Source: Planctomycetota bacterium (GTDB taxonomy: Bacteria; Planctomycetota; UBA1135; UBA2386). Taken from it: a stretch of DNA of 45,462 nucleotides. Of this stretch, positions 11,490-43,526 are shown piece after piece. How positions within the stretch are numbered: position 1 is the stretch's first letter; the number at the start of each line of letters is the position of its first letter. The position numbers and the translations under genes were made by a program. Location: the NCBI GenBank assembly GCA_044351865.1, contig JBILEY010000003.1:1-45462 (forward strand). Direction: 5' to 3'. A model generated the notes under the pieces. That model did not search any database. It was given only the letters and a program-made list of their open reading frames with translations, and had not been told where the DNA came from.

Positions 11490-13250
11490 TCACAGCACGT
11501 CGAGCTGGGTCACGCGCAGCACTTCGTCGGGCGTCGTCATGCCGTGCAGCAGCTTCTGCACGCCCGACATGCGCAGCGTCTTCAGGCCGCGCTCCAGCGC
11601 GCCGCGCTTGATCGTGCTGGCGGTCGCCTTGTTGACGATCTGCTCCTGGATGTGGGTGTCGATCGGCATCACCTCGTAGATCGCGGTGCGGCCGGCGTAG
11701 CCCGAACGGAAGCACTCGTCGCAGCCCTTGCCCTTCATCAGCTTGCCGTCGGGGAACTGGTCGATCGACAGCTTCAGGTCCTCCAGGTGGTAGAGCATCT
11801 CCTGGGTCGGCGTGACCGGTTCGCGGCAGTTGGGGCACAGCGTGCGCAGCAGGCGCTGGGCGATGACCAGCAGCAGCGACGACGACACGAGATACGGCTC
11901 GACGCCGATGTCGATCAGGCGCGTCACCGTCGACGCCGAGTCGTTGGTGTGCACCGTCGAGAACACCAGGTGTCCGGTCAGTGCGGCGCGGATGGCGATG
12001 TCGGCGGTCTCGTTGTCGCGGACTTCGCCGACCATCATCACGTCGGGGTCCTGGCGCAGGAACGAGCGCAGGCCGGCGGCGAAGGTCAGGCCCTTCTTGA
12101 CGTTGACCTGCACCTGGCTGATGCCGTCGAGGTTGTATTCGACCGGGTCCTCGATGGTCAGGATGTTGAGGTCCGGCGCGTTGATCGCGTCGAGGCACGC
12201 GTAGAGCGTCGTCGTCTTGCCCGAGCCGGTGGGGCCGGTGACGAAGATGACGCCGTGGCTGTAGTTGATGTAGCGACGGATCGTGCGCTCGGCTTCGTTC
12301 TCGAGGCCGATCTGGTCGAGCGAGTAGATCTTCGTCGTCTTGTCGAGGATGCGGAACACGACGCGTTCGCCACCGGCGACTGGCACCGTGCTGATGCGCA
12401 CGTCGACGTCGCCGTCGCCGACGCGGATCGACGCGCGGCCGTCCTGTGGCAGGCGGCGCTCGGCGATGTCCATCTTCCCCATGACCTTGACGCGCGAGAT
12501 GATCGCTTCCTGCGCGCGCTTGGGGACCGACTCCATGTCGTAGAGCACGCCGTCGATGCGCATGCGTACCTGCAGGCGGTCGGCGTAGGGCTGGAGGTGG
12601 ATGTCCGAGGCGCGCAGCTTCAGCGCCTGGAACAGCAGCATGTTGACCAGCTTGATGACCGGCGCCTTGTTGGCGTCGAGCAGGTCCTCCGACTCCTGGA
12701 TGTTCTCGGCGATGGACACGATGTCCGTGTCCTTGACGTCCTGGAGCGCTTCGTCGACGCCGTCGGCCTTGTGGCGGTAGGCGCGGTTGATCAGGTTGGC
12801 GACCTCGCCGCGCGTCGCCAGCACCGCTTCGACCTCGCGCCCGAGCAGCGTCGCCAGGTCGTCCATCGGCTGCACTTCGAGCGGCTTGTGCGTCGCCACG
12901 CGCAGCAGCGAGCCAGTGTCCTCGATGGCGATCAGGCCGTGCGTGCGCGCGAACTGCACCGGGATCTGGTGGATGAACACTCCCGGCACGCCGACGCCGT
13001 CGAGGCTCGGCCGGAACTCGAGGCCGAGCATCTGGGCGAAGAACTCGAGGCACTTGCTCTCGGACAGCAGGTTCTTGCTGACCAGCACCTGGTCGAGCTG
13101 CTGCCCGGTCTCGCGTTCGGCCTTCAGCGCGTCCTCGATCTGCGCCGCCGTCAGCCCGGCCTTGCGCAGCAGGCTCTCGCGGATGCGATCACTGCGCACA
13201 GCCGGGGCCGTGCCGGCACCCGGACCCGCTCCCGGAGTGCCGTTGCTCAT
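11490..13250 (-). CDS. gspE: Type II secretion ATPase GspE (PulE/PilB family)
   Basis: The likely start is ATG 13250, which overlaps the gspD stop; the track's longer N-terminus is spurious. Motifs: ASDIH, DIAERRLPQDG, Walker [45 protein letters not shown] and tetracysteine CPNC...CDEC. Confidence 0.95.
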   Translation of the reverse strand: MSNGTPGAGPGAGTAPAVRSDRIRESLLRKAGLTAAQIEDALKAERETGQQLDQVLVSKNLLSESKCLEFFAQMLGLEFRPSLDGVGVPGVFIHQIPVQFARTHGLIAIEDTGSLLRVATHKPLEVQPMDDLATLLGREVEAVLATRGEVANLINRAYRHKADGVDEALQDVKDTDIVSIAENIQESEDLLDANKAPVIKLVNMLLFQALKLRASDIHLQPYADRLQVRMRIDGVLYDMESVPKRAQEAIISRVKVMGKMDIAERRLPQDGRASIRVGDGDVDVRISTVPVAGGERVVFRILDKTTKIYSLDQIGLENEAERTIRRYINYSHGVIFVTGPTGSGKTTTLYACLDAINAPDLNILTIEDPVEYNLDGISQVQVNVKKGLTFAAGLRSFLRQDPDVMMVGEVRDNETADIAIRAALTGHLVFSTVHTNDSASTVTRLIDIGVEPYLVSSSLLLVIAQRLLRTLCPNCREPVTPTQEMLYHLEDLKLSIDQFPDGKLMKGKGCDECFRSGYAGRTAIYEVMPIDTHIQEQIVNKATASTIKRGALERGLKTLRMSGVQKLLHGMTTPDEVLRVTQLDVL

Positions 13251-15700
13251 TGCGGCTGGCTCCCGTTCGGGTTCGCCGGGTTCGACTGGCTGCCCGGCGC
13301 CCCGGGGGCGCTCGGTGCACTCGGCGCGCCGGTGGCGGCAGCGCGGCTGCGGCGGCTGGCGCCGCCGAGCTCGTAGCCGCCCTGGCGGTCGAGGTCCTCG
13401 TAGGTGGCGCCGACGTCCTCGAGCGTGCGCGGCTCCTCGACGCGGTTCGGCGTGTAGCGCTTGTCGATGATCTGCAGGCGGCGGTCGCCGATGTAGTCCT
13501 TGGCCTCGAGCTTCTTGTTCAGGCTGACGTAGTAGAGGTCCTGGAAGTCGTCCTCGTCGAGGATCGTCGGCGTGACGAAGAAGTAGAGGTTCGTCTTCTT
13601 CCGTTCGTCCTCGCCGCGGCGGAACAGGATGCCGAGCAGCGGGATGTCCTTCAGGATCGGGATGCCGCCGTTGTTGCTCGACTCCTGGTCTTCGATCACA
13701 CCGCCGATGACCATCGTCGCGTCGCTCGGCATCGTCACCTGCGTCTTGATCGAGCGGCTCTGGGTGATGCCGCCACCGGTCACCGAGTTCGGGTCGAAGG
13801 CGCCGACGAAGCGGCTGACCGTCAGGTTGATGTTGAGGCGCAGGTAGTTGTTCGGCGAGATCGTCGGCGAGATCTCGAGCGAGATGCCGGCCTCGCGCGG
13901 CTGGCCGACGCCACTCTGCGTGGTCGCCGTGCCCTGGTTCTGCGTCTGCGTCGGGCGCGACTCCTTGGTCTCGACGGTCGCGCTGGCGTTGTTGTTCACC
14001 AGCACGCTCGGCAGCGACAGGATGTTGGCGCGGTCGTCGGTCGACAGCGCGTTGATCAGCAGCGGCACCGCGAAGTCGCCGCCGCTGATGATGCCGCCGG
14101 TGATGCCCTGCAGCGGGTTGTCGAAGTCGGGCAGGCGGGTGTCGGGCAGGCCGTCGTCGTCGGTGTCCTCGAACACCGACTGTCCGAAGCTGGTGAAGCC
14201 GAAGCCGCGGGTGAAGTCGCCGTCGTCCTTCAGGTCGATCAAGCCGAGTTCGACACCGAAGCGGTCGAGGTCGCCGGTGGTCAGTTCGACCAGCGCCGCC
14301 TCGATCAGCACCTGCGGTTGCCGGCGGTCGAGCTTGTCGATCAGCAGCTGGATCTGCTTCCACTTGGTGCCGGCGGCCGAGACGACGAGCGAGTTGCTCT
14401 CCTCGTGCGCCTGGATGACCGTGCGGCGGGTGCGGCGGGCCGCCGAAGCGCCGGGGCCGGTGGTCTGCTGCGCCTGCTGCTCGGCCTGCACGTCCTCCTG
14501 CAGGAACTGGTTCAGCGTCTGGCGCAGGTCGGTGGCCAGCACGTTCTTCAGGTTGATGACGTTGGCGGCGCCGTCGACCGGCTGGCCGGGCACGTCGAGG
14601 CGCGCGACCAGGTCCAGGGCCTCGCGCACCTGTTCGCCGGTGCCGCTGAGCACCAGCGCCTTCTGCGAACTGTGCACGACGACCTTCAGCTGCGGCTGGC
14701 CGGACGCGCCGGGAACGCCACCGCCGCCGGCGCCAGCGCTCTCCTGCAGCACCTGCTGGCGGATCTTGCTGCGGCTCTCGAGCACTTCCGTCAGGATCGG
14801 CTCGAGCTCTTCGGGCGCCTGCTGTTCGAGCACGACGACCTGCACGACGAGGTTCGGCTGCTCGAGCGGCACGTCGACCAGCTTCAGCAGCTCGACGGCG
14901 GCGTAGACCTGCGGACCGAAGCCCTGCAGCAGCATCGCCGAGGCGTTGCCGGCGTTGCCGAGCGTCAGCGTGCCGCCGCCGGTCGGGGCGCCGGTGCTGG
15001 CGAAGAACGGCCGCAGCGCGTTGGTGGCGATGGTGGCGTTGATGTTCTTCAACTGCACCGTCGTCAGGATCGGCACGCCGGTCTGGTTGCGGTACTCCGG
15101 CACCTTGTCCGGCGTCACGTAGATGGCGCCGTTGGTGACCTCGCGGCCGCGCGCGCCGACCATCGACACGATCTCAAGGATCTCGAGCTCGCCGGCGCCG
15201 CGCGGCACGACTGCGAGGCCCTTGATGTAGAGCATCGTCTGGAAGAACGAGAAGAAGTCCTCGGCGAAGCGGTCGCGCTTGATGCGGAACGTGCCGAGGA
15301 AGCTGACCGTCGAGCTGCCGCCCTGGGTGCCGGTCGTCAGGTCGGTCGCGTTGAAGGTGAACCGCTTCTTGGTCACCTCCTGCGCCCACTTGATGAACTC
15401 GGTCAGCTCCATGCCGTTCGTCTCGTTCATCGAGAAGGCGATGGTGTCGCCGTCGACGACGAGCGCCGGGCCGCCCTGCGGGTTCTGGGTGCCGCCAGGT
15501 CCCTGTGCGCCAGGTCCCTGTGCGCCAGATCCCTGTGCGCCAGGCGCCTGGGTGCCCGCCCCTTGCGCACCTGCACCCTGGGCACCAGCACCTTGGGCAC
15601 CAGCAGCGCCGGTCGGCGGCGGCCCGCCGCCTTGGTTCCGCGCGATCGCCGGCAGTGCCAAGGCCGCGCACGCAGCCATCTGGACGGCCCACCGCATCAT
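13247..15700 (-). CDS. gspD: Type II secretion secretin GspD
   Basis: Signal peptide MMRWAVQMAACAALALPAIA (start could lie as far up as 15799). N-domain repeats end in LDVP / IDKLDRRQPQVLIEAALVE. Secretin domain has NILSLPSVLVNNN, GISLEISPTIS, VIGGVI, IPILKDIPLLGILFR and NLYFFVTPTIL. It lies upstream of gspE-gspF. Confidence 0.92.
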   Translation of the reverse strand: MMRWAVQMAACAALALPAIARNQGGGPPPTGAAGAQGAGAQGAGAQGAGTQAPGAQGSGAQGPGAQGPGGTQNPQGGPALVVDGDTIAFSMNETNGMELTEFIKWAQEVTKKRFTFNATDLTTGTQGGSSTVSFLGTFRIKRDRFAEDFFSFFQTMLYIKGLAVVPRGAGELEILEIVSMVGARGREVTNGAIYVTPDKVPEYRNQTGVPILTTVQLKNINATIATNALRPFFASTGAPTGGGTLTLGNAGNASAMLLQGFGPQVYAAVELLKLVDVPLEQPNLVVQVVVLEQQAPEELEPILTEVLESRSKIRQQVLQESAGAGGGGVPGASGQPQLKVVVHSSQKALVLSGTGEQVREALDLVARLDVPGQPVDGAANVINLKNVLATDLRQTLNQFLQEDVQAEQQAQQTTGPGASAARRTRRTVIQAHEESNSLVVSAAGTKWKQIQLLIDKLDRRQPQVLIEAALVELTTGDLDRFGVELGLIDLKDDGDFTRGFGFTSFGQSVFEDTDDDGLPDTRLPDFDNPLQGITGGIISGGDFAVPLLINALSTDDRANILSLPSVLVNNNASATVETKESRPTQTQNQGTATTQSGVGQPREAGISLEISPTISPNNYLRLNINLTVSRFVGAFDPNSVTGGGITQSRSIKTQVTMPSDATMVIGGVIEDQESSNNGGIPILKDIPLLGILFRRGEDERKKTNLYFFVTPTILDEDDFQDLYYVSLNKKLEAKDYIGDRRLQIIDKRYTPNRVEEPRTLEDVGATYEDLDRQGGYELGGASRRSRAAATGAPSAPSAPGAPGSQSNPANPNGSQPQ
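15493..15610 (-). repeat. 15-bp tandem repeat encoding (GAQGx)n linker at the GspD N-terminus
   Basis: CCCTGTGCGCCAGGT-like units; protein reads GAQGAGAQGAGAQGAGTQAPGAQGSGAQGPGAQGPGG. Confidence 0.8.
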
Positions 15701-15971
15701 GGCTCGGGCTGCGTTCCCCCGCGGCTGGGTCTGGATCGTGGAGCGAACGGGTTCCCGAGAGAGTGAGGTGTCGGCCATCATCATTGCGAACTCGGACACG
15801 GGTCGGCGGTGGATCCGCCTGCGACGGGGTCGCGTCGCGTTTTATTTCCGCTCGACGGCGCAAGGAAGCGTCGAGTCCTGGTTTCCGACTTTCCGTTTGC
15901 GCCGTTCGCATGGCGTCGGTTCATTCGCGCTGGCTGCGACGAGGTGACTCGCGCAGTTCTCGCCGCGGGCC

Positions 15972-20157: not shown

Positions 20158-21297
20158 TCAGCGCTTCGGCAGCCACTCGGCGACACGCGCCGCCACCGCG
20201 GCCTGGATCTCGTCGCGCGCCTTGCGGTAGGCGCGCAGATCGCCGCCATAGGGATCGGCGACGTCGCGCTGGTCGGGCCGCAGCAGCGTGATCTTCTCGC
20301 CGGCGGCCGGTGCTTCCGCCAGCGTGTTGCGGCGGTGGCTGGCGGCGAGGCAGTAGATGCGGCTGCTCTTGTGCACCAGCTCCGGCGACAGCGGCTGGCT
20401 CTGGTGCGTCGACAGGTCGAGCCCGGCTTCGGCGCCGGCGGCGAGGCTGCCGTCGCTCGCCGGCAAACCGTCGGTCGTGCTGGTGCCCGCACTCGCGAAC
20501 GCGAAGCCGTGCGCCAGCAGTTCGGCCTCGGCGATGCCGAGTGCCTTCGCCGTCAGTTGCCGCGCGAAGGCCGCTGCCAGCGGCGATCGGCAGGTGTTGC
20601 CGGTGCAGACGAACAGCACCATCTCGGCGGCGGCGTGGAGCACTTCGTCGGCGGTCAGGATGCCCTCGCGCGGCACTTCGAGGCGGCCAGCTCGCCAGTG
20701 CACGACCGTCGACGGCGAGCCGAGCGGCGTGCGGCCGTCGTCGACCAGCAGGTCGAGGTCCTTGCCGAAGTGCGCTGTGATCGCGTCGGGATCGGCCAGC
20801 GCTGGAGCCCCGGGCGCATGCAGCGCCGGCAGGAACATGCGGCCGCCGGCGGCGGCGATCAGGCTGCGCGTGAACTCGTGCGCGGGCAGCCGCACGGCGA
20901 CTTCGCTGCTTGCCGCCGGTGCACGCGCCGGCAGCACGACGGTCAGCGGGCCCGGCCAGAAGCGATCGATCAGCCGGTCGATCGCGGGCGGCACGTTCGC
21001 GGCCAGCGCGCGCAGCTCGGCGCGGCTCGCCACATGCAGGGCGAACGACGGCGACGTGCGCAGTTGCAGGTTCGCCAGCGCTTCCCTGCGGTTGGTGGCG
21101 GGCGTGGTCGCCAGGGCCGGTCGCTGCAACAGTGCACCAGCGCGTGCGATCGCGCCGGCGTGGTCCGGCAGCACCGCGAGGCCGTAGACGGTCTCGGTCG
21201 GCAGCGCCACCAGCTGGCCTTGCTGCAGCCGCGCCACGACGTCCGCGCGCAGGGCGTCGCGGTCGGTGGAACGCAGCGGAACCCGGACCATGGCCAT
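20158..21297 (-). CDS. Fusion of TsaC/Sua5(YrdC)-like domain and low-molecular-weight phosphatase (YwlE-type)
   Basis: N-terminal domain: VALPTETVYGL, FWPGPLTVVL, VAVRLP, PSTVV. C-terminal domain: VLFVCTGNTCRSPLA P-loop, SAGT and DVADPYGG. Confidence 0.9.
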   Translation of the reverse strand: MAMVRVPLRSTDRDALRADVVARLQQGQLVALPTETVYGLAVLPDHAGAIARAGALLQRPALATTPATNRREALANLQLRTSPSFALHVASRAELRALAANVPPAIDRLIDRFWPGPLTVVLPARAPAASSEVAVRLPAHEFTRSLIAAAGGRMFLPALHAPGAPALADPDAITAHFGKDLDLLVDDGRTPLGSPSTVVHWRAGRLEVPREGILTADEVLHAAAEMVLFVCTGNTCRSPLAAAFARQLTAKALGIAEAELLAHGFAFASAGTSTTDGLPASDGSLAAGAEAGLDLSTHQSQPLSPELVHKSSRIYCLAASHRRNTLAEAPAAGEKITLLRPDQRDVADPYGGDLRAYRKARDEIQAAVAARVAEWLPKR

Positions 21298-21384
21298 GGG
21301 CCGGGACGATAGCGACGGCCGCTGGCGAAACCTCGACCGCGGGCGAGCTTTCTGCCGGGGCCGTGCCTATCTTCGCGCGGCTCG

Positions 21385-22124
21385 ATGTCCACCCCGGCTC
21401 GCGAAGAACGCCTCGCCAGGATCCGCACCCAGCGGTTGGCGCAGCTCGGCACGCTGCTGGCTGGCTTCGCCCACGAGGTGCGCAATCCGTTGAGCACGAT
21501 CGGGCTCAACCTGCAGCTCGTGCTCGAGGACTTCCGCGAGCCGGAGACGACGCGCGACAAGCGCACGCAGAAGCGCCTGTCGACGGTCGAAGCCGAGGTG
21601 CGGCGGCTGCAGAAGATCCTCGAGGAGTTCCTCGGCTTCGCACGCGCGCCGGAGCCGAAGCTGGTGCCGGTGCCGTTGAACGACCGCCTGCAAGCGCTGG
21701 TGGACTTCCACGAGCCGGACCTCGCCGCCGCCGGCCTGCAGCTGCGCTTCTATCCGGGCCAGGACATCGGCCAGGTGCCCGGCGACTGGGACCACCTGCA
21801 AGGTGCCGTCACCAACCTGCTGCGCAACGCCAAGGAAGCGACGCCGAGCGGCGGCCAGGTGCTGGTGTCGACGGTGCGCGACGGCGACTTCGTGCTGGTG
21901 CGCGTCACCGACACCGGCGCTGGCATCGTGCCGGAGCTGCAGCCGCGCGTGTTCGATCCCTACTTCAGCACCAAGAAGACCGGCACCGGCCTCGGCCTGC
22001 CGACGGTGCGGCGCGTCGCCGAGGAGCACGGCGGTTCGCTGACGCTGGAGTCGGAGGTCGGCAAGGGCACGCAGTTCACGTTGCGACTGCCGGCGGGCCG
22101 GCTGTCCGATCCGGAGTCGGTCGC

Positions 22125-22128
<4 letters not shown>
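21385..22128 (+). CDS. Histidine kinase (HisKA + HATPase), no sensor domain
   Basis: H-box AHEVRNPL, N-box NLLRNAKEA, G1 DTGAGI, F FDPYFSTK, G2 GTGLGL. Stop overlaps the ATG of the next gene. Confidence 0.92.
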
Positions 22129-23501
<1,373 letters not shown>

Positions 23502-33836: not shown

Positions 33837-35177
33837 CTACTTGCCGCCGACCGGCTTGCCCAGCGACTGCAGGGCGGCCTTGACCTTGTCCTGCTGCAGC
33901 GTCTCCCGGAACACGGCGTCGTACTTGCCGATCGCTTCGATCTCGGCCGCCGGCAGGCCGGATTCCTTGATCAGCTTGATCAGGCTCTGCACCTTCTTGC
34001 GCCGGGCTTCGCACCGCATCATCCCGGCCACGGCCTTCTGCACCATCGCCGCCGTCTCGCCGGCCTTCTCCGCCGCGTGCACGAAGTCGTTGTAGGCCTC
34101 GTTGTAGTCCTCACTGGCGATCCCGAGCTGGCCGCGCAGTTCGTAGAGCGCCGCTTCGCCCTTGCGGCCCGGCTTCTTCAGCTGTTCGTCCAGCGCCCGC
34201 CGCAGGCGCGTGATGCCCTGTTTGTCGCCGAGGGCCTGGATGGTCAGCGCCGCCTGCAGGCCGAGGTCGTTCAGCTCGCCCTTCTGGATGATGTCGGTCA
34301 GGTTGCGGATCGTCGGCTCGTGGTCGCGCGGGGCGATCGTCGCCAGCGCCTCGATCAGCCGCTTGGTGTCGCGCCAGTCGATGCGCTCGCGGCTCAGCAG
34401 CGGCAGCAGTTCGCGGGCCACCTGGTCGTGTTCGCGCACGGCGGCGGCGAAGTAGTCGATGTAGGCCGGCAGCAGCTTGTTGTCCTTCTCGTTGGTGTAG
34501 GCGGTGCGAACGAGTTCGAGCACGCTCGGACTGCCGATGGCCGCGAGGCAATCGAGTGCTTCGAGCCGAACGCTGCGGTCGGCCGACGCCAGCATCGCCG
34601 CGACCTTCGGGGCGGCGCCGACAGCGCGGCGACGGCCCAGCGCTTCCAGCACGAGCCGCCGCGTCTCCGCCTTCGGCTGGTCGAGCAGGTCGAGCAGCAG
34701 CGTCGTCGCCGCCGGGGTCTCGCTCGCGCCGAGCAGGCGGATCGCCTCGCCGCGCGCCGTCTCGCTCTGACCGAGCGCCAGCTCGACCAGGGCGCCGAAC
34801 TGCTCCGCGAGTTCGCAGCGCGCCAGCAGCCTGCCGCAGTTGCTGGCCAGATGGCGCGCCGCATCGGTGTTCTGGGCCGGCGTGAGGTGCGCCAGCAGCT
34901 CCGGCACGACGGCGTCACCCAAGGCGAGGATCGTCTCGAAGCGGCCATCGAGCGTGGCCTTGTTGGCGTCGTATTCGACGCTCAGGTCGGCCACGAACGG
35001 CTCGAGCAGTTTGCCCTCGGGGTGGCGTGAGGCGCGTTCGCGCGCCAGCTTGCCGAGTTCGGCCACAGGCACCTGCGCGCTGCTGGTCGCGAGCGGCAGC
35101 ACCAGCACCAGGGCGGAGCACACGAGGGATCGGAGGTGGCTCGTGGAACGGGTCGGCGCGCGGCGCGATGGCGGCAT
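33837..35177 (-). CDS. Exported HEAT-repeat protein with TPR-like C-terminus
   Basis: Signal-like LVCSALVLVLPLATSSA; repeats such as ETARGEAIRLLG, ETRRLVLEALG and RSVRLEALDCLA; TPR-like ALYELRGQLGIASEDYNEAYNDF. Confidence 0.75.
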   Translation of the reverse strand: MPPSRRAPTRSTSHLRSLVCSALVLVLPLATSSAQVPVAELGKLARERASRHPEGKLLEPFVADLSVEYDANKATLDGRFETILALGDAVVPELLAHLTPAQNTDAARHLASNCGRLLARCELAEQFGALVELALGQSETARGEAIRLLGASETPAATTLLLDLLDQPKAETRRLVLEALGRRRAVGAAPKVAAMLASADRSVRLEALDCLAAIGSPSVLELVRTAYTNEKDNKLLPAYIDYFAAAVREHDQVARELLPLLSRERIDWRDTKRLIEALATIAPRDHEPTIRNLTDIIQKGELNDLGLQAALTIQALGDKQGITRLRRALDEQLKKPGRKGEAALYELRGQLGIASEDYNEAYNDFVHAAEKAGETAAMVQKAVAGMMRCEARRKKVQSLIKLIKESGLPAAEIEAIGKYDAVFRETLQQDKVKAALQSLGKPVGGK

Positions 35178-35450: not shown

Positions 35451-37262
35451 GTGGTGACTCGTGACTTCGACGTGATCGTGGTCGGCGGCGGCCACGCCGG
35501 CGTGGAAGCGGCGACGGCTGCCGCGCGCCTTGGCTGTCGCACGGCGATGGTGGTGCTCGATCCGGCGGCGATCGGCCGCATGTCGTGCAACCCGGCGATC
35601 GGCGGGCTCGCCAAGGGCCAGCTGGTGCGCGAGGTCGACGCGCTCGGCGGCGAGATGGGGGTCGTCACCGACCAGACCGGCATCCAGTTCCGGATGCTGA
35701 ACACGAGCAAAGGGCCGGCGGTGCGCTCGCCGCGCGCGCAGTGCGATCGCGATGCCTACAACCGCGCGATGGTCGCGCGCGTGCTCGGCTACGCGAACCT
35801 GACGGTGGTCGCGGGCGAGGCCGTGGCGCTGCGCCGCAGCGGCGACGGCGCCGCGATCGCCGGCGTGGCGCTGGCCGACGGCTCGCAGCTGGCGGCGCCG
35901 GCGTTGGTGCTGACGACGGGCACGTTCCTCGGTGGCCGCTTGTTCGCCGGCGCCTGGGAACAACCCGGCGGCCGCCACGGCGAAGCGCCGGCGGCGCGCA
36001 TCAGCGCGTCGCTGCGCGAATGCGGGCTGCGTCTTGGGCGGCACAAGACCGGCACGCCGCCGCGGCTGCACCGCGACTCGATCGACTTCACCGGCCTCGA
36101 ACCGCAGCCCGGCGACGACCCGCCACAGCCGTTCTCGTTCCGCACCAAGCGGCTCGACACCGTCCAGATGCACTGCTGGCTGACGCGCACGACGCCGGCG
36201 ACGCACGCGATCATCCGCGCCAACGCGCACCACTCGCCGATGTTCCAGGGCCGCATCCAGGGGGTCGGCCCGCGCTACTGCCCGAGCGTCGAGGACAAGG
36301 TCGTGCGCTTCGCCGAGCAGGACTCGCACCCGATCTTCCTCGAGCCCGAAGGCCGCGATTCGGTCGAGATCTACCCGAACGGCGTGTCGACCAGCCTGCC
36401 GGCCGAAGTGCAGGTCGCGTTCCTGCGCACGATCCCGGGCCTCGAGCGGGTCGAGGTGCTGCGGCCCGGCTACGCGGTCGAGTACGACTACATCCTGACC
36501 GACCAGATCCGCGGCGACCTGCAGGTGGCGACGGTGCGCGGCCTGTTCGCCGCCGGCCAGATCAACGGCACCAGCGGCTACGAAGAAGCGGCGGGGCAGG
36601 GTCTCGTCGCCGGCCTCAACGCGGCGCGTTTCGCGCGCGGGCAGGACTCGTTCGTGTTCGATCGCGCGACCGCCTACCTCGGCGTCATGGTCGACGATCT
36701 CTGCCGCGTGAACCCGACCGAGCCATACCGGATGTTCACCAGCCGCGCCGAGTTCCGATTGCTGCTGCGCAGCGACAACGCCGACCGGCGGTTGACGCCG
36801 ATCGGCGAACGGCTCGGCCTCGTCGATGCGGCGCAGGCCGCCGGCGTGCAGCAGAAGGAGCAGCGCATCGCGGCGGCGCGCAAGTGGCTCGACCTGCGCC
36901 GGCACGAGGGCCGAACGCTGACCGAGTGGCTGCGGCGGCCCGAGGTCGACACAGCGCAGCTGCTGGTCTGGGACGAGACGCTGCGCGGCATGGCGCTGTC
37001 GCCGGCCGAGCTGGCCGAGGTCGAGGCCGAAGTGAAGTACGCGGGCTATGTCGAACGGCAGGCGATGGAGGTGGCGCGCCTCCAGCGCATGGAGCAGCGG
37101 CGCATTCCCGCGACGTTCGACTACGCGGCGATCCCGGGCCTCAGCAACGAAGCGCGCGCGCGACTGCTGCAACGGCGGCCCTTGACGCTCGGCGAGGCGT
37201 CGCGCATCGCCGGCGTGCGTCAAGCCGACGTGCAGTTGCTGTTGGTCAAACTAGGGCGCTGA
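35451..37262 (+). CDS. mnmG: tRNA uridine-5-carboxymethylaminomethyl(34) synthesis enzyme MnmG (GidA)
   Basis: VVGGGHAGVEAA, MSCNPAIGG, KGPAVRSPRAQ, KTGTPPRL, GPRYCPSVEDK, AGQINGTSGYEEAAGQG and EPYRMFTSRAEFRL. Confidence 0.97.
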   Translation: MVTRDFDVIVVGGGHAGVEAATAAARLGCRTAMVVLDPAAIGRMSCNPAIGGLAKGQLVREVDALGGEMGVVTDQTGIQFRMLNTSKGPAVRSPRAQCDRDAYNRAMVARVLGYANLTVVAGEAVALRRSGDGAAIAGVALADGSQLAAPALVLTTGTFLGGRLFAGAWEQPGGRHGEAPAARISASLRECGLRLGRHKTGTPPRLHRDSIDFTGLEPQPGDDPPQPFSFRTKRLDTVQMHCWLTRTTPATHAIIRANAHHSPMFQGRIQGVGPRYCPSVEDKVVRFAEQDSHPIFLEPEGRDSVEIYPNGVSTSLPAEVQVAFLRTIPGLERVEVLRPGYAVEYDYILTDQIRGDLQVATVRGLFAAGQINGTSGYEEAAGQGLVAGLNAARFARGQDSFVFDRATAYLGVMVDDLCRVNPTEPYRMFTSRAEFRLLLRSDNADRRLTPIGERLGLVDAAQAAGVQQKEQRIAAARKWLDLRRHEGRTLTEWLRRPEVDTAQLLVWDETLRGMALSPAELAEVEAEVKYAGYVERQAMEVARLQRMEQRRIPATFDYAAIPGLSNEARARLLQRRPLTLGEASRIAGVRQADVQLLLVKLGR

Positions 37263-37284
37263 TGCGCGGTGCGCCGCGCGCCGC

Positions 37285-37872
37285 TCACATCTGCAGCACG
37301 GCCTTGATCAGGCCTTCGATGTCGCCGGCCGCTGGCGCTGCGGCGCTGCGGCGCACCTTCTCGACCTTGTCGCGCGCATCCTTCTCGCTGTAGCCGAGCG
37401 TGACCAGCGCGGCGATCGCATCGTCGTTCGTCTGGTTCGGCAGCGGGCGTTCGCCGGCGGCCGGCAGGTCGAGCTTCGCCATCGCGTCGCGCAGCTCGAG
37501 GCACAAGCGCTCGGCGGTCTTCTGGCCGACGCCCTTCACCGCCTTCAGCGCCGCGGTGTCGCCCCGGGCGATCGCCAGCGCCAGGTCGTGCGGCGCGAAC
37601 ACGCTGAGCAGCGCGAGCGCCAGCGTCGGTCCGACGCCGCTGACCGACAGCAGCTTCTTCGCCAGTTCGCGCTCGGCGCGCGACGCGAAGCCGAGCAGCG
37701 ACGGCGTGCCGTCTACCACGTGCAGGATGGTGAACACCTGGCAGGTGGCGCCGACTTTCAGCTCGGTGGCCGAACTCAAGCTGATGCGCAGCTCGTAGCC
37801 GACGCCTCCGCAACGGACCACGGCGCGCGAGGCGCTCTTGTCGACGACGTCGCCGAGCAGGTGGTCGTACAT
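37285..37872 (-). CDS. ruvA: Holliday junction branch migration protein RuvA
   Basis: GGVGYEL, LLGF, LLSVSGVGPTLALALL, VKGVGQKTAERLCLEL and DAIAALVTLGY. Confidence 0.94.
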   Translation of the reverse strand: MYDHLLGDVVDKSASRAVVRCGGVGYELRISLSSATELKVGATCQVFTILHVVDGTPSLLGFASRAERELAKKLLSVSGVGPTLALALLSVFAPHDLALAIARGDTAALKAVKGVGQKTAERLCLELRDAMAKLDLPAAGERPLPNQTNDDAIAALVTLGYSEKDARDKVEKVRRSAAAPAAGDIEGLIKAVLQM

Positions 37873-37897
37873 GCGCGGGGATCCGCCGAGGCGGCGA

Positions 37898-39214
37898 TCA
37901 GCCGCGCAGCGACAGCCCGAACTCGTCGAGCTTGGTCTTGATCTCGTTCAGCGAGGTCTGGCCGAAGTTCGGGCACGCCAGCAACTCGGCCTCGGTCTTC
38001 TGCGCGAGGTCGCCGATCGTGCGGATCTTCAGCAGATCGACGATGCGGCGGCTGCGGACCGACAAGTCGAGCTCGCTGATCGGGCGACGCGACGGGTCCG
38101 GGCTGTTCGGGTCCGGCTGCTCTTCGAGGCGCGCCGCCGGCTCGGACATCTCGCCGAGGTCCTTGCTCATCAGTTCGTCGGCCGTCATGCCGAGGCGGAG
38201 TCCCTTGTTCTTCAGGATCTCCTTGATCTCGGTCAGCGACGTCTCGCCGAAGTTCTTGTAGCTGAGCAGCTCGGCTTCGGTCTTCTTGACCAGGTCGCCG
38301 AGCGTGCGGATGTTCATCTTCGCGAGGCAGTTGCGCGAACGGACCGACAGCTCGAAGTCGTTGATCGGCGTGCGCAGCAGCTTGTTGCGCTTGTCGTCGC
38401 GGCGCTCCTGGTCCTCGTCGTAGTACATGTTCAGCGCCGCGGCCGCATCGCGGCGATACAGGCGCGCGCGCGAGTTGTCCGGGTTCGCCTGCAGCGCCAG
38501 GTCGAAGCACTGCATGGCGCGGCGGTAGTTGCCCATGTCCTCGTAGAGGATGCCGAGATTGACCACGCAGGCGACGTTGACCGGCGGCGACATCAGCGCG
38601 CGCTCGTAGAGCTCGCGCGCCTCTTCGTCCTCGCCGCGCAGGTCGACGTTCAGCGCGAGGCGGAACAAGGCCTGCTTGTGGTTCGGATCGGCCGCCATCA
38701 CCTCGTCGTAGAGCTCGATCGCCTTGGTGACGTCGCGATTCAGTTCGGCGACGCGGCCCGAGTAGTACTTGCGGTCGTTCTCGCCGAGCAGCGCATTGCA
38801 CTTCTCGACGTCCTTGGTCAACCGCTCGGCCTCGTTGGCGTAGTCGAGAGCGCGCAGCCACACCAGCGCTTGCGCCGGATCGGACTCGCGCTTGTTCAGC
38901 AGTTTCGCCGCATCGTCGAGGTTGCCGACGGCGGCCAGGCTGCTGGCGAGGCACAAGGCGACGACCGGGTTGGCCTTGTCGGCCTGGAGCAGCGAGATCG
39001 CATCCTGGTGCCGGCCGAGGGCCCACAAGGCGATGCCGCGGGCCGTGCCCTTGGCGCGGGGGTCCTGCAGCCAGTCGCGCAACTGCTGCAGCGCATCGAC
39101 CGATTGGAACACGGCGGCGCGGAAGGCATCGAGCTTGGTCGGCGTGATGTCGCCGGACAGCAGCGAAGCGGGGTCGAGCGAAGGGATGGGGGCGTTCGTG
39201 ACCGTGTCCGTCAT
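37898..39214 (-). CDS. TPR protein with two tandem RNA polymerase alpha-CTD domains
   Basis: Start ATG 39214 preferred. TPRs include KAIELYDEVMAADPNH, EARELYERAL and NLGILYEDMGNYRRAMQCFDLALQANPDN. Then TPINDFELSVRSRNCLAKMNIRTLGDLVKKTEAELLSYKNFGETSLTEIK and RPISELDLSVRSRRIVDLLKIRTIGDLAQKTEAELLACPNFGQTSLNEIK. Confidence 0.9.
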   Translation of the reverse strand: MTDTVTNAPIPSLDPASLLSGDITPTKLDAFRAAVFQSVDALQQLRDWLQDPRAKGTARGIALWALGRHQDAISLLQADKANPVVALCLASSLAAVGNLDDAAKLLNKRESDPAQALVWLRALDYANEAERLTKDVEKCNALLGENDRKYYSGRVAELNRDVTKAIELYDEVMAADPNHKQALFRLALNVDLRGEDEEARELYERALMSPPVNVACVVNLGILYEDMGNYRRAMQCFDLALQANPDNSRARLYRRDAAAALNMYYDEDQERRDDKRNKLLRTPINDFELSVRSRNCLAKMNIRTLGDLVKKTEAELLSYKNFGETSLTEIKEILKNKGLRLGMTADELMSKDLGEMSEPAARLEEQPDPNSPDPSRRPISELDLSVRSRRIVDLLKIRTIGDLAQKTEAELLACPNFGQTSLNEIKTKLDEFGLSLRG

Positions 39215-39277
39215 CGTGATCGTGCGTCGCTGGGTGCGGGAGCGGCTCGCGAGTTGCTGCCGGGGGCCCGAGCCCAC

Positions 39278-39319
39278 AAAGGGGCGGGGAGCCTAGGGGT
39301 TGGTCGGGGTCGCGGTCAA
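39278..39319 (-). promoter_or_regulatory. Putative sigma70 promoter of the TPR-alphaCTD gene (and ruvA)
   Basis: TTGACC-18 nt-TAGGCT-CCCCGCCCCTTT on the minus strand. Confidence 0.65.
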
Positions 39320-39323
39320 GTTG

Positions 39324-40601
39324 TCAGCTGGCGCGGGCGATCGCTGCCGCGTAGACGGCGGCGAGGTCGGCCGCCATCGCCCCGAAGCCGCGGGCCAAAG
39401 GCCGCGCTGCCTGCGCCATGCGCGCCACCAGCCGCCGGTCCGCGCACATTCCGCGCAGCGCCTCCGTCCAGGCGCCGACGTCGCCCGGGGGCAGCACCCG
39501 CCCGGCCTCGCCGTCGGCGACTGCGTCCTGAAGGCCGCCGATGCGGCTGACCAGCACCGGGCGACCTGCCGCCAAGGCTTCGCGCACGGTCAGCCCGAAG
39601 GCCTCGTGCCACAGCGCCGGCGCCGCCAGCACGTCGATCTCCGACAGCAGCTCCGGCAGTTCGCCGAGCCCGTAGGGGCCGAAGTAGTGCACGCCGCTGC
39701 CGGGCTGCAGCCGTTGGAAGCAGCGCGTGCCGTAGCTCTCGTCGCCGTGGTAGGGCACGACGTTCCCGTGGATGCGCAACACCGCGGCGCCGCGCGGCAG
39801 GGCCGCCATCGCGTCGAGCAGCACGTGCAGGCCCTTGCTCGGCATCACCGTGCCGAAGTAGCCGACGCGCAGTGGGCCGGGCCCTGTCGCCGGCGGTGGC
39901 AGTTGCTGCAAGCGTTCGGTGTCGACCCCGTTCTCGACGACGACGAAGCGGTCGGCGGGCACACCGAGAGCCACGAACGGCGGGATGGCGCGCGCACTCG
40001 GCACCACCAATTGTTGCGGCAGCGCCAGCGCCTGCAGGGCGTCGGCGTGCACGCGGGCGACCTTGGCTTCGCGATCGCCGTCGCCGAGCCACCAAGGGAA
40101 CGTCGCCTGCAGGCATTCGCCGCAGCGGCGCAGTTCGGCGGTCTCGCAGGCTTCGCCGCGGTGGTGGAACATCTGGCCGCGCGGGCAGAACAGCCAGTAG
40201 TCGTGCAGCGTCAGCACGGTCGGCACGGCCGCGGCGCGCAGGGCCTGCAGGCTGTCGAGCGACATGCCGGTCAGGTGGTGCACGTGGGCGACGTCGAAGC
40301 GCACGCCGACGCTGGCGCGGCTGGCGAGGAACCGCTGCATCGCCGCTGCCATCGGCTCGCTGCGGTAGATGTCGGCCAGCGTGTGCACGTTCTCCCAGCG
40401 GTAGGCCACGCGGTGGATGCGCGGGGCGTCGCCAGGCAGCGTCGTCCATTCTCCTTGCTTGGTGCCCGGCAAGTGGCCGCGCGCGAAGATCTCGACCTCG
40501 TGGCCGGCGGCGACCAGCGCCCTGGCCAAGCCATCGACGTGCTGCTCGACCCCACCGACGCTGTCGGGCGGCAGGCCGTGGCTCACCAGCAGGATGTGCA
40601 T
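39324..40601 (-). CDS. Glycosyltransferase, GT-B fold (GT4 family)
   Basis: MHILLVSHGLPPDSVGGVE, VLTLHDYWLFCP, GYFGTVMPSKG and EAFGLTVREALAAGRPVLVSRIGG (ExxxxxxxE). Confidence 0.9.
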   Translation of the reverse strand: MHILLVSHGLPPDSVGGVEQHVDGLARALVAAGHEVEIFARGHLPGTKQGEWTTLPGDAPRIHRVAYRWENVHTLADIYRSEPMAAAMQRFLASRASVGVRFDVAHVHHLTGMSLDSLQALRAAAVPTVLTLHDYWLFCPRGQMFHHRGEACETAELRRCGECLQATFPWWLGDGDREAKVARVHADALQALALPQQLVVPSARAIPPFVALGVPADRFVVVENGVDTERLQQLPPPATGPGPLRVGYFGTVMPSKGLHVLLDAMAALPRGAAVLRIHGNVVPYHGDESYGTRCFQRLQPGSGVHYFGPYGLGELPELLSEIDVLAAPALWHEAFGLTVREALAAGRPVLVSRIGGLQDAVADGEAGRVLPPGDVGAWTEALRGMCADRRLVARMAQAARPLARGFGAMAADLAAVYAAAIARAS

Positions 40602-40643
40602 CTGCGCACCATGCCTGCCTGACTGCTGCTGCGCAATCGAGGT

Positions 40644-40684
40644 TTGACCGCCCGCGGTTTCGCCGCTAGGCTCCCCGCCCCTTT
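40644..40684 (+). promoter_or_regulatory. Putative sigma70 promoter of rpmH
   Basis: TTGACC-17 nt-TAGGCT-CCCCGCCCCTTT. Confidence 0.65.
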
Positions 40685-40736
40685 ATCCAGTCGAGGACGG
40701 CCGCAAGGTGCGGTGTCGCCTCGCGCGAGTGCCGCC

Positions 40737-40871
40737 ATGAAGCTCAAGGTCCGTCGTTCGAAGGTGAAGCGTCTGAAGAAGGTCGGGTTCCGCACCCGCA
40801 GCAAGACCACCGGTGGCCGCAAGGTCATCAAGCGCAAGATCAAGCGCTCGGGCAAATTCCGCGTCGGCTGA
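40737..40871 (+). CDS. rpmH: 50S ribosomal protein L34
   Basis: 44 aa, very basic: MKLKVRRSKVKRLKKVGFRTRSKTTGGRKVIKRK (L34 pattern S..KR....GFR.R..T..GR.VI..R). Confidence 0.88.
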   Translation: MKLKVRRSKVKRLKKVGFRTRSKTTGGRKVIKRKIKRSGKFRVG

Positions 40872-40886
40872 TCGGCGCCGACAGCT

Positions 40887-40925
40887 CTGCAGCCATAGCA
40901 GCTGCAGCCATAGCAGCTGCAGCCA
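40887..40925. repeat. 15-bp tandem repeat, about 2.6 copies
   Basis: CTGCAGCCATAGCAG x2 followed by CTGCAGCCA. Confidence 0.8.
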
Positions 40926-41256: not shown

Positions 41257-42018
41257 TCACGTGCCCGGCAGCTGGCGCTTCAGGAACGCCATGTCGTCGG
41301 CGTACTGAGTCAGTCCCTTGCGGTCCGCTTCCGGCATCTTCTTCGTGAAGCTGGCGGTGATGCGCACGCCGCCGTCGGTCGCCACCTCGGTCGAGTCGAC
41401 CGTCGCCGCCGTCTGGAACGGCTCCTGGCGGATCATCTTCACGTGGAACTTCAGCTGCACCTCGCTGCCCGCGATGAACAGCTGCTTGGCCTGGTCGGCG
41501 TTGATGCCGTGCTTGGTGCCGTTCCACAGGAACTGGATCTTCTGGCCGTTGACGTTCGACATCAGGCCGATCAGCGCCTTCTTGCCGCCGATCATCTTGT
41601 TGCGGATGTCGTCGGCGAACGAGATGACGACCTTCTCCTGATCGACCGGGACCTCGCCGGCGAGTTCCTTCTGGTTCAGGTGGCGGATGATCGCCTTGGT
41701 CGCGTCCTTCTCGGTGTCGCACAGCGAGATCAGCTTGTCGATGCCGACCTTCGTCATGACGTCGCGCACGACCGGCGACGGCTGCGAGATCACCAGTTCG
41801 CCACCCTCGGCGCGACAGAGCTTGTGGGCCTTGATGACGGCACCGAGCGCGGTCGAGTTGATGAACTTGACCAGGCGCATCTCCAGGATCATGTGGCTGA
41901 TGCCGCGCTGGACCAGGCCTTCGACGTCCTGCATCAGGGCCGGGACGAAGAACGTGTCGAACTCGCCCTTGAGGGTGAGGATGGCGTAGTCGTCGTGCAG
42001 GATCTTGTCGATCTTCAT
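41257..42018 (-). CDS. STAS (anti-anti-sigma) domain fused to a PilZ-like C-terminal domain
   Basis: STAS: ILTLKGEFD...VKFINSTALGAVIKAHK...GGELVI...VVRDVMTKVGIDKLI. The C-terminal beta-rich domain ends GSEVQLKF...ATV...RITASFTKKMPEADRKGLTQY. The STAS call is secure; the PilZ call is tentative. Confidence 0.8.
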   Translation of the reverse strand: MKIDKILHDDYAILTLKGEFDTFFVPALMQDVEGLVQRGISHMILEMRLVKFINSTALGAVIKAHKLCRAEGGELVISQPSPVVRDVMTKVGIDKLISLCDTEKDATKAIIRHLNQKELAGEVPVDQEKVVISFADDIRNKMIGGKKALIGLMSNVNGQKIQFLWNGTKHGINADQAKQLFIAGSEVQLKFHVKMIRQEPFQTAATVDSTEVATDGGVRITASFTKKMPEADRKGLTQYADDMAFLKRQLPGT

Positions 42019-42057
42019 GGGCGGTGCGGCAAGCGGGGGTCTCAGACCGGTGGGAGA

Positions 42058-42094
42058 GGGCGGGGATTCTGGCCGCCACCGCGATCAAGTGCAA
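42058..42094 (-). promoter_or_regulatory. Putative sigma70 promoter of the STAS gene
   Basis: TTGCAC-17 nt-CAGAAT-CCCCGCCC on the minus strand. Confidence 0.55.
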
Positions 42095-42124
42095 CGGTCG
42101 GTGCGAAGGCACCTGTTTCCTTGC

Positions 42125-42153
42125 TCGACTCGGCTGCGTCGGCCACCTAGAGT
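42125..42153 (+). promoter_or_regulatory. Putative promoter of the GAF-PP2C gene (back-to-back with the STAS promoter)
   Basis: TCGACT-17 nt-TAGAGT, 11 nt before ATG 42165. Confidence 0.5.
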
Positions 42154-42164
42154 CCGCCCGCGGC

Positions 42165-43526
42165 ATGAAGTGGCCATGGTCCAAGAAAGACGAGCCGGCG
42201 CCGCCGCCGGCGCGAAAGGAGACGTCCCCGGCGGCCCATGGGCGCGGCGGGGAGCGTGAAACGTCGACGATCCTGACCGGCGATGCGACCCAGGACTCGC
42301 GGTCGCTGCAGATCCTGCTCGACACGATCGCGGCGGTCACCGCCAACATCGACCTCGACACCGTGCTGCGCGACATCGTCGACCGTTCGCTGCAGGTCAC
42401 CAGCGCCGAGCGCGCGATCCTGCTGCTCGGCGAGCAGCCCGATGACCTGTCGGTGCGCATGGCGATGGACCGGGAAGGCCGGTCGCTGACCGGCGAACTG
42501 CAGTGGAGCCGCAGCCTCGTGCGCCGCTGCCTCGAGGACGGCGTCGCCGTGCGTTCCGTCGTGCAGTCCGACCAGGAAGCGCTCGAGCTGGGCCAGTCGG
42601 TCTACGACCTCAAGCTGCGCGCCGTGATGTGCGCGCCGATGCGCGCCCGCAATCGCACGGTCGGCGTCATCTACGTCGACTCGCGCGCCGTGCGCCGCGA
42701 GTTCTCGTCGCGCGACCTGGCGCTGTTCGGCGCCATCTCGGCGCAGTTGGCGATCTCGGTCGAGAACGCGCGCCTGCACGCCGACTCGCTCGAGAAGGTC
42801 CGCCTGCAGAAGGACGTCGAGATCGCGCGCCGCATCCAGCAGCACCTGCTGCCGCCGGTGCCGAACCACCTGACCGGTCTGCAACTCGGCCTGCGCTACG
42901 TCGCTGCCGAGCAGGCATCCGGCGACACCTACGATCTGGTGCCGCTCAGCGACGGTCGCCTCGCGGTGATGATCGGCGACGTCACCGGCCACGGCGTTGG
43001 CGCGGCGCTGCTGACCCACGCCGTGCAAGCAGCGCTGCGCAGCTACCTCGAACTGATCGACGATGCGGCGACGGTGGTGACCCGCATCAACCAGCGGCTC
43101 GTCGCCGGCGTCGAGACCGGCAACTTCATGTCGTTGTTGCTCGCGATCATCGATCCGAAGGCGCGCACGCTCGAATACGTGAACGCCGGTCACCCTGGGC
43201 TCGTGCTGAGCCGCGCGTCGGGCGTCAGCGTGCTGGAGAAGACCGGCATGGTGCTCGGCGTCGTCGGCGACCAGGTCTACCACGCGAGTCCGAAGGTCGA
43301 GCTGCAGCCGGGCGACCTGCTGTTCTTCCACACCGATGGTGTCGACGAGGCGATGTCGCCGCGGCGAGAGATGTTCGGCAACGAACGCCTGCAGGCGGTG
43401 CTGGCGCGGGCGCAGAACCTCGCGGCAGAAGAAGTCGTCGGCGCCGTCGAAGAAGGGCTGTGGCAGCACGTCGCCAACGGCGCCGTCGAAGACGACTTCA
43501 CGATGATCGCCGTCAAGCTGTCGTGA
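42165..43526 (+). CDS. GAF domain + PP2C (SpoIIE/RsbU-type) Ser/Thr phosphatase
   Basis: Start ATG 42165. GAF: LRAVMCAPM...VGVIYVDS...FSSRDL. PP2C: ARRIQQHLLP, SGDTYD, IGDVTGHGVGAA, NAGHP, HTDGVDEA and EDDFT. Confidence 0.93.
   Translation: MKWPWSKKDEPAPPPARKETSPAAHGRGGERETSTILTGDATQDSRSLQILLDTIAAVTANIDLDTVLRDIVDRSLQVTSAERAILLLGEQPDDLSVRMAMDREGRSLTGELQWSRSLVRRCLEDGVAVRSVVQSDQEALELGQSVYDLKLRAVMCAPMRARNRTVGVIYVDSRAVRREFSSRDLALFGAISAQLAISVENARLHADSLEKVRLQKDVEIARRIQQHLLPPVPNHLTGLQLGLRYVAAEQASGDTYDLVPLSDGRLAVMIGDVTGHGVGAALLTHAVQAALRSYLELIDDAATVVTRINQRLVAGVETGNFMSLLLAIIDPKARTLEYVNAGHPGLVLSRASGVSVLEKTGMVLGVVGDQVYHASPKVELQPGDLLFFHTDGVDEAMSPRREMFGNERLQAVLARAQNLAAEEVVGAVEEGLWQHVANGAVEDDFTMIAVKLS

Follow-up and report, generated by a model that had tools for sequence, protein, structure and literature searches.

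The 45,462-nt stretch of DNA analysed here (the window), a contig of a Planctomycetota genome that was assembled into 662 contigs and is 83.5% complete, carries on its minus strand a gene for a stand-alone protein in which a tetratricopeptide repeat (TPR) solenoid is followed by two tandem copies (CTD1 and CTD2) of the C-terminal domain of the RNA polymerase (RNAP) alpha subunit (alpha-CTD). This TPR/alpha-CTD gene is single-copy, near-universal across the sampled Planctomycetota, and distinct from rpoA. We favour, tentatively, an essential, lineage-specific DNA-binding factor linked to RNAP rather than a decoy for alpha-CTD ligands. To our knowledge, the alpha-CTD, among the best-studied modules of bacterial transcription, is known almost only as a domain tethered in the polymerase; here, after duplication, it stands outside the enzyme on a TPR scaffold, in a gene kept in single copy nearly phylum-wide. 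If this gene is essential, as insertion data from P. limnophila suggest, it would offer a testable entry point to transcription, or to RuvA-linked DNA transactions, in a phylum whose gene regulation has been little studied and which includes the genetically tractable Planctopirus limnophila.

A detached pair of alpha-CTDs on a TPR scaffold

The span 37285-39319 holds two minus-strand genes, ruvA and the TPR/alpha-CTD gene (Table 1). The initial annotation of this span, made from the sequence alone, had described a stand-alone TPR solenoid followed by two complete alpha-CTDs at 38185-38375 and 37900-38090, and profile searches with both families bear this out. Pfam RNA_pol_A_CTD (PF03118) matches the protein in two stretches with an E-value of 3.9e-42 and 142.2 bits (gathering cut-off 23.8), far beyond chance; in a scan of the genome the two copies are placed, in agreement with the original proposal, at 38210-38398 (85.3 bits) and 37922-38101 (65.3 bits). 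The TPR families likewise score above their cut-offs (TPR_2, E 2.5e-16 and 58.8 bits, cut-off 27; TPR_14, 56.7 bits, cut-off 23.5), and further TPR models, including TPR_19 and TPR_16, are matched. Distant orthologs also pass the PF03118 cut-off. The open frame extends from 37898 to 39277, where an in-frame GTG would add 21 amino acids (aa); ATG 39214 was taken as the start because relatives are 435-440 aa long and begin with MTDT or MTET.

An AlphaFold2 model built on an alignment of 75 orthologs has a mean predicted local distance difference test (pLDDT) score of 92.6 and a predicted template modelling score of 0.67. Its helices, from H25-35 to H248-261, form a TPR-type solenoid, and the pLDDT is lower in the junction block that follows (75-90) and in the linker between the two alpha-CTDs (59-69, and below 50 at residues 357-360). 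Within the junction, M263, D266 and E267 are conserved in at least 90% of the 75 orthologs, and we infer that helix 267-280 serves as a capping helix. Compared as a whole with structures in the PDB (Foldseek), the model matches generic TPR proteins only. Short forms of 301-326 aa, which lack the first 130-150 residues, occur in some lineages (L129, L130, L134, L137 and L140), and that of L134 retains both alpha-CTD stretches and about three TPRs. The conserved core would therefore consist of about three TPRs (residues ~150-261) and the two CTDs.

Table 1. Features of the TPR/alpha-CTD locus (positions in the window).
Feature	Positions	Strand	Description and basis
ruvA	37285..37872	-	195 aa; Pfam RuvA_N, HHH_5, RuvA_C
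Spacer, stop codon of TPR/alpha-CTD gene to ruvA start	37873..37897	-	25 bp
TPR/alpha-CTD gene, whole	37898..39214	-	438 aa plus stop; open reading frame, Pfam
CTD2 (alpha-CTD copy 2)	37901..38098	-	residues ~373-438; diverges more than CTD1
Variable acidic linker CTD1-CTD2	38099..38164	-	residues ~351-372; poorly conserved, gapped in alignment
CTD1 (alpha-CTD copy 1)	38165..38368	-	residues ~283-350; best-conserved region of the protein
Conserved junction (MYYDED) and helix 267-280, linking TPR to CTD1	38369..38431	-	alignment, model
TPR/helical-repeat solenoid	38432..39142	-	residues ~25-261, 14 helices; Pfam, model
Family-4 glycosyltransferase	39324..40601	-	~109 bp upstream of the TPR/alpha-CTD gene; Pfam

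As had been argued from the missing N-terminal domain (NTD), the protein cannot be a subunit of core RNAP. The alpha N-terminal families PF01193 and PF01000 are absent among the 24 Pfam families matched, and the NCBIfam equivalogs for rpoA are not reached (bits scored/cut-off: TIGR02027, 139.3/227.8; NF003513, 157/302), their profiles matching through their C-terminal part only. A separate canonical rpoA with NTD and CTD is present on another contig (C181), with RNA_pol_A_bac, RNA_pol_L and RNA_pol_A_CTD in one frame, which rules out a split rpoA; this open reading frame runs past the contig end and is followed by the gene for ribosomal protein L17 (rplQ). The genome contains three PF03118 matches only, two in the TPR/alpha-CTD gene and one on C181. 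In each of five other genomes one ortholog is accompanied by a single further alpha-CTD match, which lies in an open frame of 341-413 aa, and the rpoA genes of the two that were examined (333 and 336 aa) encode both NTD and CTD. The TPR/alpha-CTD gene itself sits outside the rpoA-rplQ cluster, between the glycosyltransferase gene and ruvA. In genome G173 the ortholog, 448 aa long, is located only 36 kb from rpoA.

An even draw of 401 genomes across Planctomycetota, including that of the window, was surveyed for orthologs. A match at E<=1e-8 was found in 398 of them, and in 243 of 243 high-quality genomes, with most genomes giving two matches, the ortholog and rpoA. By our own reading of the survey table, 382 of the 401 reach E<=1e-40 with near full-length coverage. 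The three genomes that gave no match are 59-72% complete. Weak matches only were obtained in 16 genomes, four of which were inspected: in two a contig end truncates the gene, in one a run of N takes the place of CTD1, and in the fourth (99% complete, 310 contigs) rpoA alone was seen. In the locus at 1492-2643 of contig C8 of genome G059 (L155), from a small-genome lineage, the ortholog is interrupted by a run of N exactly at the CTD1 position, after which the frame changes.

Restriction to the phylum was seen against one outgroup phylum, the other phyla of the Planctomycetes-Verrucomicrobia-Chlamydiae (PVC) group lying outside the search: none of 120 other genomes from the phylum of a genome titled 'Thauera sp.' matches at E<=1e-20, and the matching contig of that genome itself, 77% identical to the TPR/alpha-CTD protein, is probably mis-binned. 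Copies 70-89% identical were also noted in metagenome-assembled genomes (MAGs) titled Caldimonas, Luminiphilus, Thauera, Kuenenia, Brocadiaceae and Singulisphaera (L004, L007, L034, L045, L063, L072 and others); such contigs are probably mis-binned or wrongly labelled. Of 8000 candidates scored in a word-indexed protein search, 7906 reached E<=1e-3. The top 120 of these 7906 are 74-98% identical and 416-445 aa long, and the organisms named among them are all planctomycete MAGs. The ten nearest ESM-Atlas clusters are Planctomycetota in 10 of 10 cases. Searches started from a Planctomycetaceae-like ortholog and from the most divergent ortholog gave, among the best 120 matches of each, names from Planctomycetes only, with Planctopirus not among them.

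Database names are generic: those seen among the best 120 hits are 'tetratricopeptide repeat protein', 'DNA-directed RNA polymerase subunit alpha' and 'DNA-directed RNA polymerase subunit alpha C-terminal domain-containing protein'. The impression that the family is known by domain-level names only was thus correct, the literature search having found no functional study; the terms 'RNA polymerase', 'RuvA' and 'tetratricopeptide' are absent from the text of a 2025 review (PMC12673574). Identity with the published 'PVC signature protein' was considered and ruled out, as that protein is given as ~53 to over 80 aa (PMC3444138).

Conserved surfaces and history of the two alpha-CTDs

In E. coli, the '265 determinant' of the DNA-binding alpha-CTD comprises R265, N268, C269, G296, K298 and S299, K297 adjoins the DNA-contacting K298, and a patch formed by D259 and E261 contacts region 4 of sigma. 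Alignment of the window's protein to solved E. coli alpha chains, among them 1coo_A (E 1.7e-17 for CTD1 and 6.6e-12 for CTD2), upholds the residue assignments made initially: both copies keep the equivalents of R265, N294, G296 and S299, the KK pair at 297/298 is replaced by ET in CTD1 and QT in CTD2, and CTD2 is changed at N268. The residue at that position is R, and C269 is replaced by I as well. CTD1 also retains the equivalents of D259/E261 and of T285/E286/E288. In E. coli the positions compared here serve in contacts with DNA, with sigma region 4 and with activators.

The same positions were counted over the 75 orthologs, which are mutually less than 75% identical (Table 2); L020, L066, L072, L073, L074, L077, L079 and L123 had been dropped before alignment as truncated or odd. 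The R, N, C, G and S of the 265 determinant are present in 73-75 of the 75 CTD1 sequences, but K298 is replaced by T and K297 by E or D. Residues invariant in CTD1 are F287, L289, R292, L297, L308, E313, K320, N321, F322, G323, L327, E329 and G342 (numbering of the window's protein). Of these, we take R292 to be the equivalent of R265, whose role in DNA contact is assumed by reference to E. coli, a member of another phylum.

Table 2. Residues at alpha-CTD positions in 75 orthologs (E. coli numbering).
Position	CTD1	CTD2
D259	D 71, E 4	E 40, D 23
E261	E 74	D 33, E 27
R265	R 75	R 75
A267	R 72	R 67
N268	N 73	R 40, K 25, N 4
C269	C 73	C 28, A 24, I 18
N294	N 75	N 73
G296	G 75	G 74
K297	E 71, D 4	Q 52
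K298	T 73	T 71
S299	S 74	S 73

The ET and QT pairs had been taken initially as a sign of DNA binding weaker than that of the cell's own alpha subunit, a proposal that is not supported by comparison with the canonical alpha-CTDs of nine Planctomycetota rpoA genes (L002, L109-L113, L158, L159 and L161). At the position of the GKKS motif these read GKTS (three), GETT (three, all from a Planctomycetaceae-like family), GRTS, GKTT and GKIA (one each), i.e. T at 298 in eight of nine and E at 297 in three of nine. Since T298 is usual in canonical domains and E297 occurs in some, the ET motif is no clear sign that function has been lost in comparison with the alpha subunit of the same cell. CTD1 and CTD2 differ from the canonical domain in the R at 267 and, for CTD1, in the always-acidic residue at 297. 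The deviations of the canonical domains from the GKKS motif suggest, moreover, that UP-element recognition by RNAP in Planctomycetota may differ from the E. coli model.

A FastTree phylogeny of the 75 CTD1, 75 CTD2 and nine canonical sequences resolves three clean clades (support 0.94, 0.90 and 0.95). Both copies are therefore older than the divergence of the sampled lineages and reflect an old duplication. Pairwise identities averaged over six deep-branching genomes are 64.1% (CTD1), 53.7% (canonical CTD), 40.4% (CTD2) and 38.2% (TPR core), which indicates that CTD1 is constrained more tightly than the polymerase's own CTD.

Insertion data from Planctopirus limnophila and linkage to ruvA

Clues on essentiality are provided by a transposon-directed insertion-site sequencing study of P. 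limnophila (PMC10632474), in which the lowest manual cut-off for essential genes is an insertion index of 0.013 and two genes are assigned to COG0202, Plim_0499 (rpoA) and Plim_0602. The index of Plim_0602 is 7.38e-4, or 1/1355, implying a protein of ~451 aa; the values for Plim_0499 and Plim_0603 are 3.96e-3 and 1.17e-3. Two kinds of alpha-CTD gene, no more and no fewer, were present in each genome examined, so that Plim_0602 very probably represents the P. limnophila ortholog, with an index in the essential mode, and the TPR/alpha-CTD gene is probably essential. The literature search found no mention of Plim_0602. The same source gives indices of 3.21e-3 for ruvA (Plim_2446), 4.77e-3 for ruvB (Plim_2430), 5.86e-3 for ruvC (Plim_2444) and 0.129 for Plim_2445; with all three ruv values below 0.013, RuvABC would be unusually important in this organism.

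The TPR/alpha-CTD gene lies, as first described, 25 bp upstream of ruvA (stop codon 37898-37900, ruvA ATG at 37872). In 68 of 80 loci from close relatives, ruvA follows immediately in the same orientation; in four it lies elsewhere on the locus, in one it was not found, and in seven the contig ends. A phylum-wide set of 60 loci, one per genome and from ~49 coded families (four loci duplicate records of the close set), shows the same arrangement in 42; ruvA is found elsewhere, 3.4 kb away, in one further locus and not within ~4 kb in 17. Gaps between the two genes are mostly 6-100 bp. The source genome has ruvA (C240), ruvB (C570:5787-5993) and ruvC (C154:12589-12990) on three contigs, so that ruvA is paired with the TPR/alpha-CTD gene, in contrast to the textbook operon, where its partner is ruvB.

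Freshwater metatranscriptome contigs (two runs of one study) cover positions 38302-38975 with 0-1 differences, and one 543-nt contig covers 37735-38272, reading across the stop codon and the spacer and 137 nt into ruvA. Such contigs can include DNA carry-over and do not prove a single transcript; they cover part of the stretch, and the gaps between them carry no inference. A scan of 37000-40900 detected no terminator-like site on the minus strand of the spacer, the only hit being on the plus strand at 37215-37233, and no promoter-like site; both outcomes are uninformative in a genome of 70% GC. Short gaps, recurrence in 42 of 60 phylum-wide loci and the contig bridging the junction all support the suggestion that the gene shares an operon with ruvA, and co-transcription of the two is probable.

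The 17 loci in which ruvA is missing include the Planctomycetaceae-like family. Downstream genes there are spoIID in six loci (three with queH in between), Ser/Thr kinase genes in three, and genes for a CofH/MqnC-like radical SAM protein, an aspartyl/asparaginyl-tRNA synthetase and an epimerase. The loci at which spoIID/queH or a Ser/Thr kinase gene recur are L095, L101, L117, L122, L129-L131, L133 and L145, and at L145 a gene for an extracytoplasmic function (ECF) sigma factor stands in between, before the downstream gene. On the other side, the glycosyltransferase gene adjoins in close relatives, and phylum-wide in only two of 60 loci (L146 and L147, both from the window's own family).

The main rival, a serious one though rather unlikely in our judgement, is that the protein would act not in transcription but with RuvA, as a DNA-transaction factor at Holliday junctions or stalled forks. 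Its alpha-CTD-derived helix-hairpin-helix (HhH) domains would then bind DNA without sequence preference, as does domain II of RuvA, and the TPR solenoid would recruit a partner from recombination or replication restart. The ruvA linkage in close and phylum-wide loci is the strongest independent context signal that we obtained, ruvA is paired with this gene while ruvB and ruvC lie on other contigs, and one metatranscriptome contig spans the junction; an essential partner would also fit the ruv indices of P. limnophila (rounded, 0.0032, 0.0048 and 0.0059 for ruvA, ruvB and ruvC; PMC10632474). As in RuvA domain II and other (HhH)2 modules, the alpha-CTD fold has two helix-hairpin-helix motifs and touches DNA at the backbone or in the minor groove. 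Nevertheless, 17 of the 60 phylum-wide loci have no ruvA within ~4 kb downstream and carry unrelated genes in its place (spoIID, queH, Ser/Thr kinases, radical SAM), and by gene numbering Plim_0602, the probable ortholog, and ruvA (Plim_2446) are apparently unlinked in P. limnophila. The domains themselves are also closer to alpha than to RuvA: HHH_5 reaches only 18.9 bits, below its cut-off of 27, as against 142 bits for RNA_pol_A_CTD on the whole protein (85 and 65 for the two copies), RuvA_N and RuvA_C are absent, and alpha-specific patches are retained in CTD1. Operon membership by itself is no proof of common function. A predicted complex of the TPR/alpha-CTD protein with RuvA scored 0.00 in two runs made without controls, which speaks neither for nor against an interaction.

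A proposed role at promoters, its alternatives and other genes of the window

The reading that we prefer, with less than even confidence, is that of a lineage-specific essential housekeeping factor which would work on DNA in concert with RNAP, most likely at promoters. CTD1 would most likely bind DNA in the way that the alpha-CTD does at UP elements, since the surface formed by the equivalents of R265, N268, C269, N294, G296 and S299 is kept and a conserved R267 is added. By analogy, the retained D259/E261 patch may make a contact like that of its E. coli counterpart, which touches sigma region 4. CTD2, on its flexible tether, would offer a second and weaker contact to DNA or protein, and the TPR solenoid would hold a protein partner, most plausibly RNAP or a regulator of RNAP. 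The net effect would be the delivery of extra alpha-CTD modules in trans at promoters. A positive housekeeping role is favoured because CTD1 is near-invariant at DNA and sigma positions and the gene is probably essential.

It is tempting to extend this proposal to a phylum-defining general factor that supplies extra alpha-CTD modules in trans to RNAP or promoters and is coupled through its operon to RuvA in an essential process, a wider picture that we consider doubtful. If true, it could link transcription with the processing of branched DNA or stalled forks, and the protein would represent a new class of RNAP accessory factor derived from a duplicated polymerase domain.

Several observations weigh against a promoter factor of this kind. 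The residue at 297 of CTD1, acidic in all 75 orthologs (Table 2) and lysine in E. coli, may weaken or alter the contact of this domain with DNA. The strongest context signal is ruvA, a recombination gene, and not genes of transcription. The orthology of Plim_0602 is drawn from its COG label, the implied length and the pattern of two alpha-CTD genes per genome. A low insertion index can, moreover, reflect DNA condensation or position, and 17% of P. limnophila genes were called essential, according to the same study (PMC10632474).

The closest known system is the alpha-CTD of RpoA itself. Both copies can be aligned over their full length to solved E. coli chains, and CTD1 keeps the residues discussed above, including the D259/E261 equivalents. 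Unlike RpoA, however, the TPR/alpha-CTD protein has no NTD for dimerisation and assembly, and its CTDs, which follow a TPR solenoid as a tandem pair, have an acidic residue or Q at position 297 and R at 267.

Among the best matches to the two CTDs were the solved chains 6wmp_A ('alpha 1') and 6wmp_B ('alpha 2'), from an entry that we take to come from Francisella. A second alpha-related gene is found beside the canonical rpoA in the genome of Francisella, as here. The Francisella paralogs are reported to be RNAP alpha subunits that form a heterodimer within the enzyme (PMC3294249), whereas the TPR/alpha-CTD protein, having no NTD, cannot assemble in this way.

More distant parallels may be seen in CarD/CdnL, RbpA and GrgA, factors confined to one lineage, near-universal in it and probably essential, as is proposed here. 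They have no relation to the TPR/alpha-CTD protein in sequence or fold, and their binding to RNAP has been shown, whereas that of the TPR/alpha-CTD protein is proposed. Helix-turn-helix (HTH)-TPR regulators of the RNPP type likewise combine a small DNA-binding domain with a TPR array that binds peptides or proteins; domain order is reversed in the TPR/alpha-CTD protein, the DNA-binding fold is another one, and no homology beyond the generic TPR was found.

An improbable alternative is that of a nucleoid or scaffold protein, in which self-association of the TPR solenoid and two DNA-binding domains would bridge or compact DNA in the highly condensed planctomycete nucleoid, or in which the CTDs would serve only as protein-protein modules of an unrelated essential complex. 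A TPR array prone to oligomerise and combined with two (HhH)2-type domains would suit such a role, as would universality in a phylum described in the P. limnophila study (PMC10632474) as having condensed DNA; the loci examined also showed no conserved link to transcription genes. However, the alpha-specific residues are held more strictly than simple backbone binding requires.

Very improbable is the initial proposal of a decoy or anti-activator, a tethered CTD pair with little DNA binding of its own that would titrate activators or NusA-like factors or bridge them to a TPR ligand: two alpha-CTDs on flexible tethers without an NTD, and the reduced positive charge at 297 (acidic in CTD1, Q in CTD2) relative to the KK of E. 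coli, are what such a protein might have, but the DNA-contact residues that a decoy could lose are kept (R265 is invariant in both domains; N268, C269, N294, G296 and S299 are nearly always kept in CTD1), R267 has been gained, and T298 and E297 occur in the canonical planctomycete CTDs as well. Near-universality in single copy, conservation of CTD1 above that of the canonical CTD and probable essentiality, with the very low index of Plim_0602, would be unusual for a titrating regulator and fit poorly with a dispensable one.

Apart from the factor that we propose to act at promoters, several other genes of the window deserve mention. A STAS-domain protein gene (41257-42018, minus strand) lies beside a divergent gene for a GAF-SpoIIE (PP2C) phosphatase (42024-43523, plus strand), and the two together resemble a partner-switching module. 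In many close relatives the STAS gene stays near the TPR/alpha-CTD locus. A gene for a HEAT-repeat protein of 446 aa (33837-35177, minus strand) adjoins mnmG, a position kept in most close relatives (31-53% identity). Coordinates listed for secretion and sigma-54 activator genes are 11493-14363 and 13250-15799 on the minus strand and 20910-23498 on the plus strand. A secretion ATPase of the T2SSE/MshEN type adjoins a secretin, and the sigma-54 activator is an open reading frame of 863 aa with a receiver domain and a provisional start; no family match falls in its long N-terminal part. A DUF748 protein of 1629 aa is encoded at 1610-6496 on the minus strand.

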